From a virus: a DNA stretch of 64,000 nt. Shown here piece by piece: positions 20,838-40,358 of the stretch (the stretch's first letter is position 1; the number at the start of each line of letters is the position of its first letter). The notes beneath the pieces were generated by a model, which saw nothing but the letters and a program-made list of their open reading frames with translations, made no database searches and was not told the origin of the DNA. The stretch covers positions 40,189 to 104,188 of IMG/VR virus record IMGVR_UViG_3300001533_002564, one strand, 5' to 3'. A program made the position numbers and the translations under genes.

Positions 20838-23348
20838 TTAATCTTCATCTGACCAATTATGGTCATAAATTAAGTCTAAACGACTTCTTGTTATTGCGAC
20901 ATATTCCAAGTTTTTTTCTTGAGCAAATTGCCAAGGTTTTGCTGTTTGCATTGGTAATAAATCTGGTCTGATAATAAAAACTCTATCTGTTTCTAATCCT
21001 TTAATTTTATGTACTGTACTTAATACAATTCCCTGTATTTCATCAGTAAAAATTGTTTTTATTTTATATTTTAAATCCAATATGCTATCAGAAATTCTAG
21101 CAAGAAATAATAATGTCATTACTTTATCTTCAAGTGCTGTATATCCACTATGGTCATTTGGGTTTAAAATGCCTTCTTTTTTTAAATCTTTTCTAAATGA
21201 CTGAAGTTCTGTTTCCCAAAAACTTTTTAATTTTTCAATATTATTAATTTTACCAATTAATTCAATTAAATGAACTCCAATATCACTTCCCTTAATAATT
21301 GCTTTTTTACGTTGTGTAAGAAATTCAAAAAAGAGTTTTACTAGTGGCATTGTTGTTCTACAAAGTACAAAATCACCACTACGTGCTTCTTCTAAAACAT
21401 TACCATCTCTAACACTGCCTTCTGGAGCATCTGGAAGTGCTTTTATATTAGGAACAATCTCTTGCGCTTTTCTAATAACTGCTTGTGAACATCTAAATGA
21501 TACTGAAAGTGGTAATATTTTAGTATTAGGAAATTTCTCAAACCACTGAAAACTTTTTTCATCAGCAGCATTAAAACCATAAATTCCTTGAAAGAAATCT
21601 CCGACACTAATTAATCTACCTTCAAGTTTTTTTGTTGTTCGATTACGTTTTAAAACCTTTTCAATTATTCTAATCTGACAACGATTTAAATCCTGTACTT
21701 CATCAACAAAAACATAGTCTTGTGGAAAAAACCAAATACTATTATCAATTGCAGGTAGAAAAACCATATCTGTATAATCAAATGTTTTTCTATCTGTTGT
21801 CATAAAATCCAATACTTTTAAGATACGTTTAATATCTTTTGGTTTATTAAGTGGAATATCATAGCGTTCTGATATATATGGAATAAATTCTGGTTTTATT
21901 GTTAAAGTCAATCTACATAAATTACAGAGTTTCTTCATGTTATTGAGGTATATCGAAATTTCTTCTTCAGATTTTAATTCATCATCCAATCCCCATGATT
22001 TCGATTTTTTTAAAATAACCTTATCTGCCTTAAATTCATCAAATTGGATTTTATCACCATATTTTCTTTTAATTGCACCCATACCCAAACCATATGTAGT
22101 ATAACATCTAACGTGTTTAGGTAATTTTGTACCAAGTTCTTCTTTAATATGTTTATTAAACGCCAAAAACATTATTGATTTATCAACAGGTAATAATTTA
22201 ACTGCTTCAACAATTGTACTAGTATTGTGTGTTATTGTGAAATCACCTAATAAAAATCTTCCATTACCGTCTAATGTAAAACCATAATATTTTCCAATAC
22301 CAATATTTTTAACCTTAAATCCTGTTCTTAAAACAGATTTTATTTGTTTTCTTGCTTCACATTTCTTTCTAACTAATAAACAAGGTAGATTTTCAAATGA
22401 ACCTGTTATTATTATTCTCCAATAATTACCAATAAAGTTTAGTAATTTAATTCTCCCCTTTTTAGGTATGATATATGCACCAAAACCCAAACTTCTTGCA
22501 AGAAATAATAAATCTTTTGCAAATTCAGTATGTTTTGTTGTAATCTCATAATATTTATTATTTGAATGTCCATCACTATCAATGATTCCAGCCAATAGTT
22601 TTAATCTATTCTCTTTTGAATTAATTAAATAATTTTTAGGTATTGAAAAACTACCATTAGTATTTAAGCATTTCTTAAACTCATCTCTTACTATATTATT
22701 TACTTTTCTCCCGTTAAAATTAGGTGTGGTTAATGAGACAGTTATTAATTTTTTTTGATATTCATTGAATTTTGGTGTAATATTTTTATATTTAATATTA
22801 CCTAAATATTCTAAGATGGGTTTTTCATTAACATTTACTGAAATTGTCGGTGACCCATTTTTTTTTGTTCCATCACCTAACCATAAACCCATTAAATATG
22901 GGTCAATTTTTATTGTCTGTGTCTTAAAATCAACCCCAACTCTTTGTAGTCTTGCATACTTGAAATTACCGTTTGGGTATTTAGGGTAATTTAATTCATT
23001 TAATGGAATATCCAATAATTTCTTTTTTTGTTCATGATGGTGAGTTAAAACATGAACATCATTACATACCCATTCATCCCCTTTTGTTGGTATCACCTTA
23101 AATAAATCACCAAAACCATTATTAGTTTTTAATACTTTTCTCGGTGTTGAATCATCACCAATTAATAAATCACCAATTTTAATATCTTGAACAAATTTAA
23201 TTGTACCATCATACATTAATATTGGAGTATTAATTCCTAGACATTTTCCTGTACCTGCGTATGCCTTAATCAAAATATTTTCAGGTCTTTTTCTCGTGAA
23301 CATGAATATTCTTTCCTGTTCTGGTGTTGCTATAATCATACTATCCAA
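20838..23348 (-). CDS. UvrD/Rep-like SF1 DNA helicase containing an intein
   Basis: AYAGTGK/T Walker A, LAFNK, VDEVQD, VGD..Q.IYGF, SFRCS, STVHKIKGLE, YVAITRS. Confidence 0.92.
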   Translation of the reverse strand: MDSMIIATPEQERIFMFTRKRPENILIKAYAGTGKCLGINTPILMYDGTIKFVQDIKIGDLLIGDDSTPRKVLKTNNGFGDLFKVIPTKGDEWVCNDVHVLTHHHEQKKKLLDIPLNELNYPKYPNGNFKYARLQRVGVDFKTQTIKIDPYLMGLWLGDGTKKNGSPTISVNVNEKPILEYLGNIKYKNITPKFNEYQKKLITVSLTTPNFNGRKVNNIVRDEFKKCLNTNGSFSIPKNYLINSKENRLKLLAGIIDSDGHSNNKYYEITTKHTEFAKDLLFLARSLGFGAYIIPKKGRIKLLNFIGNYWRIIITGSFENLPCLLVRKKCEARKQIKSVLRTGFKVKNIGIGKYYGFTLDGNGRFLLGDFTITHNTSTIVEAVKLLPVDKSIMFLAFNKHIKEELGTKLPKHVRCYTTYGLGMGAIKRKYGDKIQFDEFKADKVILKKSKSWGLDDELKSEEEISIYLNNMKKLCNLCRLTLTIKPEFIPYISERYDIPLNKPKDIKRILKVLDFMTTDRKTFDYTDMVFLPAIDNSIWFFPQDYVFVDEVQDLNRCQIRIIEKVLKRNRTTKKLEGRLISVGDFFQGIYGFNAADEKSFQWFEKFPNTKILPLSVSFRCSQAVIRKAQEIVPNIKALPDAPEGSVRDGNVLEEARSGDFVLCRTTMPLVKLFFEFLTQRKKAIIKGSDIGVHLIELIGKINNIEKLKSFWETELQSFRKDLKKEGILNPNDHSGYTALEDKVMTLLFLARISDSILDLKYKIKTIFTDEIQGIVLSTVHKIKGLETDRVFIIRPDLLPMQTAKPWQFAQEKNLEYVAITRSRLDLIYDHNWSDED
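22224..23243 (-). mobile_element. Cis intein (340 aa) with LAGLIDADG endonuclease, inserted in Walker A
   Basis: GTGK|CLGINTPILMYDG...LLGDFTITHN|T; internal GLWLGDG and LAGIIDSDG motifs. Confidence 0.93.
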
Positions 23349-24169: not shown

Positions 24170-24238
24170 TAATAAACTTTTGATATTGAAACCCTTTTTT
24201 AAAAAAACTTTATAGTATTTATATTAAACATTTAAATA

Positions 24239-25363
24239 ATGGCACTAATAACTGTAGCAGAAAAGAATAAATTATACCTTAAAGTTAAACATGAATTAGG
24301 GTATCCGTTAAGACCATGCATAATAAAAGATAAAATGATGGATTCTTATTTAGAAATGGTTGTTGAAGATTATTCTTCAATTGTTAATCAATGGTTAATT
24401 CATCAACAATGGATTGGTTTAGAAGGAATGAATAAAGAAACAGGTGATTTTCTTGCAGCATTCACAACTAAATCAAATGCATATATGGAGAATTTTACTT
24501 ATGCATATAGTCATCAAGTTGGTTTAGGTACAAATGCTCCAGCAGCAAGAGGCTGGGAGCTTAAAAGAGACTTTATTATTACTTCAGCACATACTCAACA
24601 TTATATTATACCTGCTGGTAGAGAAGTTAATGAAGTACTTTGGGAAACACCACCACCAATTGATGGTGGATTAGTTGACCCGTTTGCATTAAATGCTTGG
24701 AGTGCTGGTATGATGGGAATGTCTTATCTTGGTCGTCCTGCATTATATGTTCAACCAACATATTCAACATTATTATCAGCACAAGACCGAATGACAAAAA
24801 GAAGAATTTTACAATCAATATTAACTTATCGTATAACTGGTTTGGCTTCTGGTGAGAAAATGTTACATCTATATCCAGTACCTAATGACCGTCACGAAAT
24901 AGCAAATAGTTGGGGAAAACATTATAGTGGTAGAAAAGTCTGGTATTGGTATTATGATACTGATGGTACTGATGAAAGTAGAGAAAAATGTTTAAATGAT
25001 AATAAAGATGTCGTTAAGTTACCATCAGACCCACCAACAACAATATTAGAATGGAGTAAAATGAATGATGTGGCGAAGCAACAAATCAGAAATTTTTTAA
25101 TTGCTAAAGTAAAAATGGTAGTTGGTGGTATTAGAGGTTTTTATGGTGGTGAACTCGGTGTTACCGAAAAACAACTAACAATGGATTATCGTCATTTACT
25201 TGATGAAGGAACTAAATTAAAAGAAGAAACTGAAAAAATCATACTTGACCAATTAACAAAAATTAGTCAAGCTAATTTAACTAAAGAACGTGCAGAAATT
25301 GCTGAAAACGTTAATAAAGAACGTGGTTATCAACCACCAATGTTCCCAATTATACCGATTTAA
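24239..25363 (+). CDS. Neck/head-completion protein (gp13-like)
   Basis: KVKHELGYP start and LLDEG..L.EE end typical of gp13-like proteins; late motif at 24215. Confidence 0.7.
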   Translation: MALITVAEKNKLYLKVKHELGYPLRPCIIKDKMMDSYLEMVVEDYSSIVNQWLIHQQWIGLEGMNKETGDFLAAFTTKSNAYMENFTYAYSHQVGLGTNAPAARGWELKRDFIITSAHTQHYIIPAGREVNEVLWETPPPIDGGLVDPFALNAWSAGMMGMSYLGRPALYVQPTYSTLLSAQDRMTKRRILQSILTYRITGLASGEKMLHLYPVPNDRHEIANSWGKHYSGRKVWYWYYDTDGTDESREKCLNDNKDVVKLPSDPPTTILEWSKMNDVAKQQIRNFLIAKVKMVVGGIRGFYGGELGVTEKQLTMDYRHLLDEGTKLKEETEKIILDQLTKISQANLTKERAEIAENVNKERGYQPPMFPIIPI

Positions 25364-25377
25364 TATTCTAATTACTA

Positions 25378-25941
25378 ATGAAAAAGAAAAAACAGTTCAA
25401 AAATATTGAAGATGAAAGAATGGGGTTATTTATGAATAATAATTCTTTTGATTTGGATATTATGTATGGTAGAAATTTTTTACAAACAGATAATGCACAA
25501 ACAGTTATTATTCATAAAATAAATCTTATTGAAACTAAATCACATGCTTTATATGGTCAATCAAAAACTAAAGATAAAAAATTTATGACACCAGTAACTA
25601 TAAATGTTATGGTTAATATTGAAGATAGTAAACAAGAATATTATGGTAATAGTCAGGGTGGAATATCACGTGATGATAGTGGAAGTATTAGTTTTGGTGT
25701 TTATCTCGAAGAATTAAAAGAAAAACAGATTGAAATTGATAGAGGTGATATTATTGAATACAATATGAGTGGTGAAAAAAATAGATATTACGAAGTTGAA
25801 AATGCAAATAATGTTACTGATGAAACAAAAAAAACAATTGGAGGATTCAAAAGTTACTGGAAAAAAGTTACTGGAGTTCCCGTAAAATCCGATTCAGTCC
25901 CATTTTATGATAATGAAGAAACTGGTGAATCAATGGTCTAA
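25378..25941 (+). CDS. Head-closure protein (gp14-like) with HEN-supplied C-terminus
   Basis: HALYGQS, I.RGDII..YYEV motifs; follows gp13-like gene. Confidence 0.6.
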   Translation: MKKKKQFKNIEDERMGLFMNNNSFDLDIMYGRNFLQTDNAQTVIIHKINLIETKSHALYGQSKTKDKKFMTPVTINVMVNIEDSKQEYYGNSQGGISRDDSGSISFGVYLEELKEKQIEIDRGDIIEYNMSGEKNRYYEVENANNVTDETKKTIGGFKSYWKKVTGVPVKSDSVPFYDNEETGESMV

Positions 25942-26970
25942 ATATATGTAATTAGTGAAATTATTACTTCTTAATCTATCCCAAATTAATTGTTGTTTCA
26001 ATTTAAGTTTATTTGATGCATCAGTTAATGAATGATATTTAACATCATCAATTTTAAACGGTTTATTATTTAATGCGTAATTATTACCCTTATTTTTTTT
26101 TGATATTTTTTTATTTATTTCTTCAATTGTTATTAATTCATTAATATTTTTTGGTTTGTTTTTATAAAAATAATTCATAAATGTTATAGTATTACTATTA
26201 ATACGATAAATTAGTGTTGCGTATTTAATTTTCAATTTTTGTGATGCTATTTTAGGGTTAATATATTCAACATCATTAATGACAACAGGATTGTTTTTAT
26301 ATGTTTGTTTCTGATTTTTTTTACGACAATCTTTATGATATTTAGCATATTTACTAATTTCTTTTCCGCATCCGCATATACAATAATATTTTTTCTTAAT
26401 AAATGGTTTATAAAAATATATTTTATGTTTTATAGAATCATATTCACCTATTTTTGGATTGTTTTCGTAATACCAGTTTTTATTTTTCCAATTTTTAAGT
26501 TTACTTGAAATTGATTTAATATCAACACATAATTCATTAGCAGCATCTTGTAATTTATCATATCTAATATTATTAATATAAAATGGTTTAGTGTGTTTAC
26601 CTAAATTACCAACACTCATTTTAAGACGAATTTCTTTTTGATTTGGATGTATTGATAAATCATAATTATTTCCTGAAGCAATTCGTGAAATATTATATAC
26701 GTTTTTCCAATTACTTATATTATTTAAATAATTTTGTTCTATCAATAAAACATCACTTTTTTTACACTTTTCTAATAATTCAACAATAAAAACATTTTTA
26801 CCATATTTATTATATGCATTTTGTAAATGTATACTATGATGACAATTTCTTTTTAATAATTCAAAATGTTTACGTATTCTTATTTTTATGTTATATGATG
26901 AACCAACATAATATTTATTATTGATAACATTAGTTATTTTATAAATTCCAGACACATTTAAATCTTTCAT
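25930..26970 (-). CDS. Free-standing GIY-YIG homing endonuclease
   Basis: SGIYKITN..NNKYYVGSS, HLQNAYNKYG, EQ.YL, YN; three repeated IND..Y.S...AS..L DNA-binding modules; late motif at 26985-26992. Confidence 0.88.
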   Translation of the reverse strand: MKDLNVSGIYKITNVINNKYYVGSSYNIKIRIRKHFELLKRNCHHSIHLQNAYNKYGKNVFIVELLEKCKKSDVLLIEQNYLNNISNWKNVYNISRIASGNNYDLSIHPNQKEIRLKMSVGNLGKHTKPFYINNIRYDKLQDAANELCVDIKSISSKLKNWKNKNWYYENNPKIGEYDSIKHKIYFYKPFIKKKYYCICGCGKEISKYAKYHKDCRKKNQKQTYKNNPVVINDVEYINPKIASQKLKIKYATLIYRINSNTITFMNYFYKNKPKNINELITIEEINKKISKKNKGNNYALNNKPFKIDDVKYHSLTDASNKLKLKQQLIWDRLRSNNFTNYIYLDH

Positions 26971-26999
26971 ATCACTAATTTAATATAAATACTTAGAAA

Positions 27000-27071
27000 T
27001 GGAAAAGAATTGTTGAAGTTCCTATTAAGGAAGATGTTGTTCCATTTTTAAGTGAAACAAAAGGGAGTTAA
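27000..27071 (+). pseudogene. Relic original 3' end of the gp14-like gene (WKRIVEVPIKEDVVPFLSETKGS*)
   Basis: 9/16 identical to WKKVTGVPVKSDSVPF at 25858; its stop abuts the convergent gene. Confidence 0.75.
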
Positions 27072-27082
27072 TTAACTCCCTT
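27061..27082. terminator. Perfect 22 bp palindrome spanning two convergent stop codons
   Basis: aagggagttaa-ttaactccctt. Confidence 0.6.
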
Positions 27083-27320
27083 CATTTTTTAAGTGTTTTT
27101 TCTTAATCTTTTCTAATTCTTCAACAAGTTTTTTATGTTGGTCTTTAGATTGGATTCCTAAGTCATCACCATATTCTTTAAAAATATCTATAACAAAAAT
27201 AATAAATTCTTTTTCTTTTTTAGATAAATATATTGATTTTTTAGCAAATAAATATAATGCCATTGCAAGCAATAGTATAACTACTACTAATAGTAAAATA
27301 ACTATATACGACATCGGCAT
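27072..27320 (-). CDS. Small membrane protein
   Basis: N-terminal hydrophobic helix. Confidence 0.7.
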   Translation of the reverse strand: MPMSYIVILLLVVVILLLAMALYLFAKKSIYLSKKEKEFIIFVIDIFKEYGDDLGIQSKDQHKKLVEELEKIKKKHLKNEGS

Positions 27321-27601: not shown

Positions 27602-28243
27602 TTAATATTTTATATCATCAAAAATTATTGGTAATAAATCTTTGATTTCTTCAAGTAATGGTATTGCCAATTCTCTCATTTGTGGGTGTGCTGCCTTTGA
27701 ACATCTTAATTTTAAAAAATGTCTCCATTCCCTTAAATTCATTTTTACATTTATTTCTGTTTTTAATCCATTTGGTAATATATATCTTGCTTCTTGTGGT
27801 GATGCACCTAAATCGATTAATTTATTATATGCTTTTTCAATATCAATTAAAACTTGTTTTAAAATTGCATATTTTTCACAATCATCATCAGATTCAGGAC
27901 AATTTGACCAAAAATTGGGTTGAATGTAAGTAATTTGATTTCCAAACTTATCTTTTGAATAATTACAATATCTTGTACTTTCTTCTGCATAACTTGCTAA
28001 TCTATGTCTAACAATTTCATGTGAAACACCTCTATCACATATGAATTTAACTGTAATATCAAAAAATTCAATCATTGCTTCATGACCACTATTAATTAAT
28101 CGTGTAATTAATTTTTTTGATGATTCATTATCAATTTTATCTTCTGACTTATAACAAGTTCTTGCTATTTTTTCAATTGTTTTTAAAATTTCATCACCAT
28201 TAATTGTTGTTAAAATTTCATAATTTGGTTTAATAATTTTCAT
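27602..28243 (-). CDS. thyX: FAD-dependent thymidylate synthase
   Basis: RHRLASYAEESTRY signature, GHEAMIE, ARYILP, NLREWRHFLKLR..AHPQMR. Confidence 0.95.
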   Translation of the reverse strand: MKIIKPNYEILTTINGDEILKTIEKIARTCYKSEDKIDNESSKKLITRLINSGHEAMIEFFDITVKFICDRGVSHEIVRHRLASYAEESTRYCNYSKDKFGNQITYIQPNFWSNCPESDDDCEKYAILKQVLIDIEKAYNKLIDLGASPQEARYILPNGLKTEINVKMNLREWRHFLKLRCSKAAHPQMRELAIPLLEEIKDLLPIIFDDIKY

Positions 28244-28254
28244 AATTTTTAATT

Positions 28255-28941
28255 TTATTGTTTATATTTCCATTTATATCCAAATGCTGTTTTATTTCGT
28301 TTTCTTAAACATTGCATTATACCACTACGACCATAATTAAGAATTCTTGATGCTTCACTAATTGATTCAAATTTATTAATTATATTCTCATTTAAATCTA
28401 ATTGTAATATTGGTTTTTTATTAACCACATTACGTTTCATATTTAAATAATCAATTTTTCTATTTTTTATTGATTTCTTCCATGAAACCCAATCAGTATT
28501 TTCTTTAATTTTTCTTAATCTTTCTGGATTATTATAATCAATTTTTAATGTTCTATTTTTTATAAATAACTTCTTTTCCTCTTCAGATGAAAAATTATTT
28601 AAATGTTTACTTCTTTCAAAAGTATGAAATATTTGTTTATTATAATCAATATATTTTGAAGTGTCACCACCATCACCATTTTCAATTCGTAAATTTGCCC
28701 AAACTTTAGATTCTACCACATTATATTTTAAACTAAATTCAATTCCTTTTTCTATTAATGTTTTTTCATTATCAGTTTCTAATATAATTTCTGTTTGAAT
28801 GTCGATAGATTTTAAATTATGTTTTTTTAAATGTCTTTTCCATAATTCACCACTACCATTATATTTAAACGGATTTTTTGTTGTTTTACCTAAATATTTT
28901 AATCCTAACGGACTTGTTTTAACATACAAATAGTATTTCAT
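28255..28941 (-). CDS. Free-standing GIY-YIG (Seg-like) homing endonuclease with NUMOD1
   Basis: YLYVK...LKYLGKT, Y.GSG..W..HLKKH; C-terminal FESISEASR...GYKWKY; late motif at 28956-28963. Confidence 0.82.
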   Translation of the reverse strand: MKYYLYVKTSPLGLKYLGKTTKNPFKYNGSGELWKRHLKKHNLKSIDIQTEIILETDNEKTLIEKGIEFSLKYNVVESKVWANLRIENGDGGDTSKYIDYNKQIFHTFERSKHLNNFSSEEEKKLFIKNRTLKIDYNNPERLRKIKENTDWVSWKKSIKNRKIDYLNMKRNVVNKKPILQLDLNENIINKFESISEASRILNYGRSGIMQCLRKRNKTAFGYKWKYKQ

Positions 28942-28991
28942 AACTTAATTTTATTATAAATACTATGGTGATGGATATTGGTGTTACTTTT

Positions 28992-37601: not shown

Positions 37602-40358
37602 ATGGCAGATTTCGTATTCACCTCTCCGGGTGTAAAATTTAAAGAACGTGACCTTACTTTTGTAACACGTAATGTGGGTATAACAACATTAGGTCTAGTT
37701 GGTGAAACATTGAAGGGTCCTGCATTTGAACCTGTTTTCATTCAAGACCAAGGACAATTTTCAGATAAATTTGGAACGCAAAGCACAAAAAGATTTCAGA
37801 ATAAAACATTACAATATCAATTACCTTATATTGCAAATGCATATTTAGGTGAAGCACAACAACTTTGGGTAACCAGAGTTCTAGGACTTAGTGGTTATCA
37901 GGCAGGAACTGCTTGGAACATTACTTTAGATGCTGGTGTTGATACTTCTACTAGTGGTGTTACTAATACAATTACAAATACAGGTATTGCGTTTACAGAT
38001 AATACATATTTAGGTGTACCATTAACAGACACAGATGCAACTGGTTCATTAGAATCTGGTTATACAAAAAATGGAAGTACTTTTACTCAGGTTGTTCATG
38101 AATTTACTGCAACAACATATAATGGTACTACAGGTGATGGTGAAGTTACAGATAAAGAAACTACTTATACAGCATCATCATATGTTGAATATGAAAATAT
38201 GGTTCTTGCTACAATTAGAAGTAGAGCTGATTCAAAAACACCAATTGATAGTGCTCCTGTTACGACATTCATAACAGATAGTCTTGAAATAACAGCTAAC
38301 ACTACTTCTGGTGCAATGAATCCAACGGGTGATTTATTTAGTAATTTTACTTTACTTGCAAAAGATACTGGTGGAACAACTATTGGAACATATAAGGCAT
38401 CATTAAATCCAAATGATAGTAATTATTTACCAAATGTAATTGGTAATGAACCAAAAGATAAAAATACTGCTATTTGGGTACAAGCAATTTATCCTGACTT
38501 AATAAAAAAACTTGATGAAGATGGTATTGCATATGCAATCAATACTAAAATGATTACTGGTTCTACTGATGTATTTACTGATTATCAAATTGGATTTCAA
38601 ACACCTGAAACACCTTGGGTTGTTTCACAATTAAAAGGTAATGGTGTTGAAAGATTGTTTAAATTCATTAGTATATCTGATGGAGATAGTGCTAATCAAG
38701 AAATTAAAATTACAATTGGTAATATTGACTCATATACTGGTGAATTTGATGTTGCTATTCGTAATTTTTATGATACTGATGCAAATCCTATTACATTAGA
38801 AACATATACTAAGTGTAGTATGCTTAAAAGTGCTTCAAATTATGTTGGTCAGCGTATTGGTACAAGTGATGGTGAATTTACTCTTAAAAGTGATTATGTG
38901 ATGCTTGAAATGGCAGAAGACATTTCATTAGATGTATATCCAGCAGGTTTTGAAGGTTATATGTTTAATAATTATGCTAGTTCAGCTACAGGTGATGGTA
39001 CTACAACAGGTATTGCACCAAAAATATTCTATAAAACCGAATATGAAGATACAGATAAAGTTTCTAAAACATATTTAGGTATTTCTGAACTTGCACATAC
39101 TAATGATGGTATTAATCAAAACATGTTTAACTTTAATAATTGGTATAATGGTCAAGATTCAGATGATTTTAGTAAATCTAAAGGTTTTCATATGGATTCT
39201 GGAGCAACTAGTATATTAATTGATGGTAATATTACTGGTGAATTTGAAGTGGGTGAAGGAACATTTGGAGCAGTAAGTGATATTAATACAGATAATCCTT
39301 ATTTTGATAAAAAGAAAAGAAAATTTACTTTAGTTCCTGCTGGTGGTTTTGATGGATGGGATGTTCATAGAAAAGAACGTTCATATGGTGATATGTTTGT
39401 GCAGGGTGGTAGACAGAGTGGTCATCCGGGTGAGCCATTAGTGATTCCAACTAATGATTTTCAAGCATGGGAAATGGCAGTTGATACTTTTGCTAATCCT
39501 GAAAATATTACAATTAACCTTTTTGCAACTCCGGGTATTAATTGGGCATATCAAACTACATTAGTTCAGAACACAATTGATATGATTGAACAACAAAGAA
39601 CTGATACATTATATGTGATTGATTCACCTCAAGGTTCTGTTGAACCAACTGTTGCTGATGGTGGTAAGGCTGATGTTAATGCAGCAGATGATATTGTCGG
39701 ATTACTTGGTGATACTGAAATCGATAGTAGTTATGCTTGTACTTATTATCCTTGGATTCAAATGAGAGACGTTCAAAATAATGTTAATGTTTATATTCCA
39801 CCTACTGGTGAAGTAGTAAAAGCAATGGCATTCACTGATAATATTTCATTCCCTTGGTTTGCACCTGCTGGTTTAAATCGTGGTGTAACTAATGCAAGAA
39901 AATCACAATATAAATTATCGTTAGAAGCACGTGATATTCTTTATGAAGCAAGAATTAACCCAATGGCAGATTTTGCAGATAGTGGTACTGCAATTTTCGG
40001 ACAGAAAACACTTCAAGTTAGAGAAAGTGCACTTGATAGAATTAATGTTCGTAGATTATTGCTTCAGATTAAAGTTCTTATTTCAAATATTGCAGTTAGA
40101 CTTTTATTTGAACAAAATGACCAAGCAACAATTGACCAATTCTTAAATAAAGCAAATCCTATTCTTGATAGTATTAAAAGAGAACGAGGCTTAACTGATT
40201 TTAGAATAACTATGGATAATACAAATAATACTCCAGAAACTAGAGATAGAAACGAATTATATGGAGAGATATTTTTAAAACCAACTAGAGCAGTTGAATT
40301 TATTGGAATTACGTTTACTATTACTCCTTCAGGAGCATCATTTGATGATGTATCATAA
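37602..40358 (+). CDS. Contractile tail sheath protein (gp18-like)
   Basis: FTSPGV..KERDL, PWFAPAGLNRG, FGQKTLQ..SALDRINVRRLL, KPTRAVEFI. Confidence 0.95.
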   Translation: MADFVFTSPGVKFKERDLTFVTRNVGITTLGLVGETLKGPAFEPVFIQDQGQFSDKFGTQSTKRFQNKTLQYQLPYIANAYLGEAQQLWVTRVLGLSGYQAGTAWNITLDAGVDTSTSGVTNTITNTGIAFTDNTYLGVPLTDTDATGSLESGYTKNGSTFTQVVHEFTATTYNGTTGDGEVTDKETTYTASSYVEYENMVLATIRSRADSKTPIDSAPVTTFITDSLEITANTTSGAMNPTGDLFSNFTLLAKDTGGTTIGTYKASLNPNDSNYLPNVIGNEPKDKNTAIWVQAIYPDLIKKLDEDGIAYAINTKMITGSTDVFTDYQIGFQTPETPWVVSQLKGNGVERLFKFISISDGDSANQEIKITIGNIDSYTGEFDVAIRNFYDTDANPITLETYTKCSMLKSASNYVGQRIGTSDGEFTLKSDYVMLEMAEDISLDVYPAGFEGYMFNNYASSATGDGTTTGIAPKIFYKTEYEDTDKVSKTYLGISELAHTNDGINQNMFNFNNWYNGQDSDDFSKSKGFHMDSGATSILIDGNITGEFEVGEGTFGAVSDINTDNPYFDKKKRKFTLVPAGGFDGWDVHRKERSYGDMFVQGGRQSGHPGEPLVIPTNDFQAWEMAVDTFANPENITINLFATPGINWAYQTTLVQNTIDMIEQQRTDTLYVIDSPQGSVEPTVADGGKADVNAADDIVGLLGDTEIDSSYACTYYPWIQMRDVQNNVNVYIPPTGEVVKAMAFTDNISFPWFAPAGLNRGVTNARKSQYKLSLEARDILYEARINPMADFADSGTAIFGQKTLQVRESALDRINVRRLLLQIKVLISNIAVRLLFEQNDQATIDQFLNKANPILDSIKRERGLTDFRITMDNTNNTPETRDRNELYGEIFLKPTRAVEFIGITFTITPSGASFDDVS

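Follow-up and report, generated by a model that had tools for sequence, protein, structure and literature searches.

Probable homing of a GIY-YIG endonuclease gene with a substitute 3' end into the putative neck gene of an uncultivated jumbo phage, with the native gene end displaced as a relic

The locus is located in a stretch of 64,000 nucleotides (hereafter, the window; positions 40,189 to 104,188 of IMG/VR record IMGVR_UViG_3300001533_002564). The source record, a 104-kb fragment estimated to be 32% complete, comes from an uncultivated jumbo phage, and all sequences used here were from metagenomic contigs. The features of the locus are as follows (positions are those of the window).

24215-24223, plus strand: GTATTTATA promoter-like motif preceding the two-gene neck operon, 16 nt before the ATG at 24239
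24239-25363, plus strand: conserved gene of 374 aa ahead of the neck gene, in synteny across nearly all related loci (72-87% identity)
25378-25941, plus strand: putative neck gene, 187 aa, predicted stopper / gp14-like fold; intact, with a replaced C-terminal end; 566 homologues
25888-25941, plus strand: live tail of the neck gene from S171 to the stop, of the minority class B (non-native), tied to the endonuclease
25930-26970, minus strand: free-standing GIY-YIG homing endonuclease gene, 346 aa, I-TevI-like layout (PF01541, PHROG 314)
26984-26992, minus strand: GTATTTATA promoter-like motif preceding the endonuclease start, 7 nt away from the relic
27000-27071, plus strand: relic of the native 3' end, 23 codons and a stop, non-coding, matching the majority tail of the homologues
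27060-27083: palindromic, bidirectional terminator-like hairpin made up of the last codons of the relic and the end of the convergent gene
27072-27320, minus strand: convergent gene, 82 aa, natively adjoining the neck gene and following it in most loci

The GTATTTATA motif was present in 15 copies in the window, about four-fold the expectation of 3.4, a count that was not attained in any of 100 shuffles. For the 374-aa protein, no match was obtained in Pfam, PHROG, or the PDB sequence profile, and its AlphaFold model (pLDDT 39) was unusable. The 187-aa protein had no sequence-family match in the same three resources either, and a tblastn search with it against 50,697 GenBank phage records gave no match; thyX was the only part of the region that matched these records at the DNA level. 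The AlphaFold model of the 187-aa protein was of middling confidence (pLDDT 64), with a beta-rich core at residues 41-168 and a disordered or low-confidence stretch at residues 179-187. Foldseek matched this model to the phiXacJX1 and T4 neck complexes (E about 4e-4), and 69 matches in BFVD at E ≤ 1e-3 agreed with those in the PDB. In VIA-align, the model was superimposed on the phage Chi neck (Z 9.5, rmsd 2.8 over 103 residues) and on the T4 gp20-gp14-gp13 complex (Z 9.1), and the top 11 rows were all neck, connector, or head-to-tail entries (Z 7.6-9.5). An earlier note on this DNA, made from the sequence alone, had called the product a neck protein. The name is supported at the level of the modelled fold only (T4 gp14-like, SPP1 gp16-like neck or stopper protein), and sequence families gave it no backing. 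In distant homologues, the conserved core stopped near a PVK-x-D motif and was followed by a short, variable tail; this variation and the low-confidence residues 179-187 fit a gene that tolerates a swapped end.

The antisense gene encodes a GIY-YIG domain at residues 8-85 (PF01541, 32.3 bits, cut-off 22.6), and its product matched PHROG 314 (homing endonuclease) at 3.7e-25. The I-TevI DNA-binding domain PF20987 was matched at 24.1 bits, below the cut-off of 27, and this C-terminal region was conserved among the endonuclease orthologues. The stop codon of the neck gene (25939-25941) sits within the 3' end of the endonuclease ORF, and the overlap of the two ends reported in the earlier note measured 12 nt, tail to tail (25930-25941). 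The GTATTTATA motif of the endonuclease gene was found in the same place in all carrier loci. No terminator-like hairpin was seen between the convergent neck and endonuclease genes (window 25900-25990). Since the same promoter-like motif also precedes both genes, their transcripts are expected to overlap in antisense, with a shared end of at least 12 nt.

Homologues of the 187-aa protein (566 in a large protein collection, the majority encoded on contigs of 320-360 kb) were divided into tail classes, judged on the best 120 of the 566. Class A, the large majority among these 120, comprised proteins of about 183 aa with EDVVPFLSETKG conserved near the end. Class B, a minority among the 120, was longer and more variable, and included the live tail of the window. 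Across unrelated gene bodies, class-B tails shared the derived features S for E, an insertion of 1-2 codons, and a C-terminal extension. A search of the distant homologues for a natural donor lineage, one in which a class-B tail is native, found none; their tails were short and variable.

The codons of the neck gene from W161 (25858) on are present again beyond the endonuclease gene. This plus-strand copy at 27000-27071, 7 nt from the minus-strand motif, was located exactly as first reported, as was its agreement with the live tail at 9 of the first 16 residues. It is preceded by an in-frame TAG (26994-26996), lacks an in-frame start, and corresponds to class A almost letter for letter. At the nucleotide level, its identity to the class-A tails of other loci was on average 76%, close to the 78-81% of the gene body, so the relic is little decayed beyond ordinary lineage divergence. 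The perfect 22-bp palindrome formed with the convergent gene was confirmed at 27061-27082, and it had a terminator-like hairpin score on both strands. The suggestion that this palindrome marks a native gene end is borne out by equivalent hairpins around the stop at native gene ends, in the endonuclease-free loci L009, L010, and L012 and also in L053. In L004, the convergent gene directly adjoins the neck gene, with a gap of 15 nt. These results support the assignment of 27000-27071 as the native 3' end of the 187-aa neck gene, and the relic still supplies the terminator-like hairpin that it has in common with the convergent gene.

More than 80 related loci were compared (IMG/VR and a metagenome scan with an endonuclease alignment), and the scan added one partial carrier, L072. 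Seven carrier contigs (the window, L020, L023, L037, L050, L053, and L215) had the endonuclease gene at one and the same position, and about 45 related loci lacked it. Its presence is thus polymorphic at one fixed site among related genomes. In the six other carriers, the orthologue was full-length, conserved, and antisense directly after the neck gene, with 59-67% identity to that of the window (47% in L215). As the carrier endonucleases are only 47-67% identical, no recent transfer was caught in the act. All seven carriers had a live tail other than class A that abutted or overlapped the 3' end of the endonuclease gene, and in all six with the far flank available, a relic of the native type was found beyond the endonuclease start and its GTATTTATA motif. 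The relics were joined to the downstream DNA of each lineage's own, and in five carriers the relic begins at the same W codon. Among the related loci compared, this endonuclease was never alongside a class-A live tail, and class-B live tails were found beside the orthologous endonuclease or its remnants. The intact endonuclease gene, the substitute in-frame end, and the displaced native end make up a single unit, always located at this site.

The earlier note had interpreted the locus as an antisense GIY-YIG insertion by which the end of the neck gene was swapped, with the original end surviving beyond the endonuclease gene. The coordinates and counts of that note were all reproduced, and both parts of its interpretation held in the wider comparison: most of the best 120 of the 566 homologues end as the relic does, and the layout recurs in L020, L023, L037, L053, and L215. 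Live-type ends in the absence of the endonuclease, a pattern that the note had named as counting against its reading, were formally present in L011, L016, L039-L048, L172/L211, and L212.

Empty sites were available for several carriers. L215 belongs to a more distant lineage, the endonuclease-free members of which (L218-L222) have a different, short native tail. L218 is colinear with L215 on both sides of the site, where an insert of 1,074 nt replaces 4 nt, and the relic of L215, shortened to 9-10 codons, is of the short tail type that is live in L218-L222. On the gene-body tree, the endonuclease-free L031 is nested among its relatives between L023 and L037, and it serves as an empty site for both. 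Its live tail is the same rare variant as their relics, and the sequences downstream of this tail and of the L037 relic are nearly identical. Over their first 28 nt, the live tail and the relic of L053 differ at a single position and have the same lineage-specific codons. In both L053 and L215, the live and native sequences diverge exactly after the codon equivalent to K170.

The relics were preserved to different degrees: intact in the window, L053, and the partial contig L072, half-decayed in L023 and L037, and decayed and frameshifted in L020. In L023 (5600-5760) and L037 (5600-5765), it is the first half that has decayed, with the same odd codons in both. The second half was nearly intact in these two, though no convergent gene abuts there.

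Most endonuclease-free loci with class-B tails represent footprints of loss. L011, the sister of the window on the body tree, has a class-B tail and no endonuclease; the last 10 endonuclease codons follow its class-B stop directly, on the minus strand and in frame, and are fused to the end of the convergent gene. L195 retains about 70 C-terminal endonuclease codons with an in-frame stop (a pseudogene fragment). In L016 and L039-L048, the last seven class-A codons lie within a few nt of the class-B stop and are followed by the native downstream promoter motif and gene. Because endonuclease remnants or truncated relics are kept in L011, L016, and L039-L048, these are former carriers and not naive genomes. 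The class-B tails of L172/L211 and L212 were without an endonuclease trace at the locus.

In L016 (4555-4660), one copy of a direct repeat of about 26 nt immediately follows the class-B stop, and the other is at the real start of the downstream plus-strand gene, of which the repeat takes in the leader and first codons. The seven-codon class-A relic and GTATTTATA lie between the copies, and the arrangement suggests an illegitimate or template-switch repair join. In L175 (3960-4060), the tail is chimeric: a class-B serine codon TCT, three changes away from the class-A GAA, is followed by a class-A end, with no endonuclease nearby. Such a tail could have arisen when a live class-B tail recombined with its relic. 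Mixed tails resembling that of L175 were also seen in P0037, P0094, and P0113.

A maximum-likelihood tree was built from the body of the neck gene, with the tail excluded. On this tree, tail class required six changes most parsimoniously, at least two of which were forced by well-supported branches, and the carriers were nested, with support, among class-A genomes. Given this scatter and nesting, the tail and endonuclease move, or are lost, independently of the gene body. A co-conversion tract, looked for as raised divergence in the gene body next to the insert, was not seen; the exchanged segment is essentially the tail itself.

Taken together, we consider it likely that a homing GIY-YIG unit carrying a substitute tail displaced the native end of the neck gene as a relic, and that the unit passes through a cycle of invasion, decay, and loss. 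Three other explanations were weighed against this one. The resemblance at 27000-27071 covers only 72 nt of DNA low in G+C, where a chance match might be suspected. The BLOSUM62 local score of the relic against the class-A consensus C-terminal peptide was nevertheless 111, and 100 shuffles of the 4 kb downstream gave a maximum of 39 (mean 27), so the similarity passed the comparison with shuffled controls that had been proposed for it; an equivalent relic also occupies the equivalent place in five other contigs. Chance similarity, with a probability close to nil, was refuted by the shuffles and by the relic of L053. It is also very improbable that the class-B tail is the ancestral gene end and the class-A relic foreign cargo on the 5' side of an endonuclease cassette. 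Such cargo would account for the class-B tails of the endonuclease-free L172/L211 and L212, and for a relic placed directly beside the endonuclease promoter motif. Each relic, however, is of its own lineage's native type and continuous with native downstream DNA, the relic of L215 being the short type live in L218-L222, those of L023 and L037 sharing the rare variant of the L031 live tail, and that of L053 sharing lineage-specific codons with the copy in its gene body. Moreover, it is the class-B tail, not the relic, that overlaps the endonuclease coding sequence. The comparisons of L215 with L218, of L031 with L023 and L037, and within L053 identify the relic as the native end rather than cargo, and its reading as a foreign part was rejected on these grounds.

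A single local tandem duplication, made when the endonuclease gene was inserted illegitimately and followed by divergence of the live copy, vertical inheritance, and repeated loss without any homing, was judged unlikely, though less so than the foreign origin of the relic. The right junction shared by carriers at the W codon fits such a single origin, as do the age of the endonucleases (47-67% identity), the lack of a visible co-conversion tract, and the two copies of L053, which match over their first 28 nt except at one position. Against this stand the supported nesting of carriers among class-A genomes and the derived class-B features common to unrelated gene bodies. The relics of the window and L053 are, in addition, essentially undecayed despite an old endonuclease lineage, which argues for repeated entry into naive genomes, or conversion, and not for one ancient event.

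For the homing unit favoured here, the following course is proposed. The mobile unit would carry the promoter-like motif, the endonuclease gene, and, on the 3' side of the latter, a diverged homologue that stands in for the final ~17 codons of the neck gene. Since the unit brings these codons, the neck reading frame stays whole, and the native end is displaced by about 1.1 kb downstream as an untranslated relic. From what is known of GIY-YIG enzymes and the T4 seg and mob genes (PMC2988022), the endonuclease would be made late in infection. During co-infection, it would presumably cut the native class-A tail of endonuclease-free relatives, and repair of the break would use the carrier genome as template, the gene body forming the left homology arm and the relic and downstream DNA the right arm. 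The substitute class-B tail is predicted to be refractory to cutting. The element would later disappear, either through a deletion or because one tail copy recombines with the other, closing a putative cycle of invasion, decay, and loss.

Being intact, the relics of the window and L053 would be expected to serve as targets too, unless the enzyme also has to recognise sequence on the upstream side of the W codon. In both relics, this upstream sequence is replaced by the promoter region of the endonuclease gene, and a putative two-part site, by analogy with I-TevI, would spare them. The distance from the start of the relic (W codon) to the point of tail divergence is ~28-30 nt. In I-TevI, the cleavage site is 23-25 nt from the insertion site, and the resemblance of the two intervals is suggestive. 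We tentatively propose, as a possibility somewhat short of even chances, that the unit is a self-contained "exon-replacement" homing cassette, in which a cut-resistant copy of the gene end is carried along, the displaced native end serves as the right homology arm, and the W-K interval corresponds to the spacing between the cut and the binding site. If so, a coding sequence would be invaded without an intron or intein, a fresh relic would be regenerated at each new invasion, and recombination between the two ends would excise the element and leave chimeric tails like that of L175.

The architecture matches the mobile-ORF "gene hybrids" known from fungal mitochondria, with a putative phage virion gene as an apparently undescribed host. 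Gene hybrids were described first in atp6 of Allomyces macrogynus and later in atp6, atp9, cox2, and nad3 of Glomus sp. (PMC3630166). In these, a LAGLIDADG ORF (GIY-YIG in atp9) lies within the 3' part of the host gene, a foreign C-terminal segment is supplied in frame and clusters apart from the host lineage, and the native segment is retained downstream, unexpressed at the mRNA level in atp6 and cox2 (PMC3630166). The phage locus is alike in having an endonuclease ORF in the 3' part of the host gene with an in-frame substitute C-terminal segment, and in keeping the native segment downstream of that ORF. The host here is a putative phage virion gene, whereas the mitochondrial hosts are organelle respiratory genes. 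The mitochondrial ORFs are also co-oriented with the host gene, often in phase, and co-transcribed, in contrast to the antisense endonuclease gene with its own promoter-like motif and tail-to-tail overlap. Further differences are that the phage relic keeps a terminator-like hairpin for the convergent gene, and that graded relic decay and endonuclease loss are visible across related phage genomes.

Among phage elements, the T4-type seg (GIY-YIG) and mob (HNH) genes represent free-standing, intronless homing (PMC2988022, PMC2790892). They share with the present gene the free-standing position near or in an essential (here presumably essential) gene, presence/absence polymorphism, and a presumed spread by double-strand-break repair with flanking co-conversion, but those described sit between genes or split a gene in two (PMC2988022, PMC2790892). 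Splitting is known for mobE in Aeh1 nrdA and mobA in the T4 gene 39/60 region (PMC2988022); there, as here, an endonuclease gene invaded an important phage coding region and host function survives, except that two polypeptides reassemble there, and here the protein remains in one piece with a replacement end supplied by the element. I-TevI of the T4 td intron has a similar layout (N-terminal GIY-YIG, cysteine-rich linker, and C-terminal helix-turn-helix domain, to which the weak PF20987 match corresponds), but the gene here is not intron-encoded and its DNA-binding match is below the Pfam cut-off. In the full-text phage homing-endonuclease literature that was searched, subscription journals aside, no substitute gene end with a displaced native end was found.

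Beside introns and inteins, and the splitting of genes, the arrangement offers a third way for an endonuclease to live in an important phage gene. The loci form a natural series, from the empty site through fresh invasion, relic decay, and a broken endonuclease to a bare footprint, which could be used for studying the homing cycle in uncultivated jumbo phages. For annotation, short orphan gene ends beside endonuclease genes should be regarded as scars, and C-terminal variation in virion proteins can reflect selfish elements rather than host adaptation.

A different GIY-YIG family, 30-34% identical to that of the window, was observed further downstream on the minus strand, past the 82-aa/90-aa genes, in L003, L007, L008, L010, L013, L018, L032, L040, L177, L219, and L224. 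With this second family in many loci and an interval from the neck gene to thyX that varies from 0.02 to 3 kb, the region is an insertion hot spot. In the window, a GIY-YIG-like ORF of 228 aa (28255-28941, minus strand), with its own GTATTTATA at 28955-28963, has thyX (27602-28243) on one side and a small basic gene on the other. Upstream of the neck operon, a helicase-like ORF of 836 aa (20838-23348, minus strand) has a P-loop that is apparently broken by an intein-like insert, as read from the translation only, with a Cys-Leu-Gly block right after GTGK and a His-Asn end before Thr.
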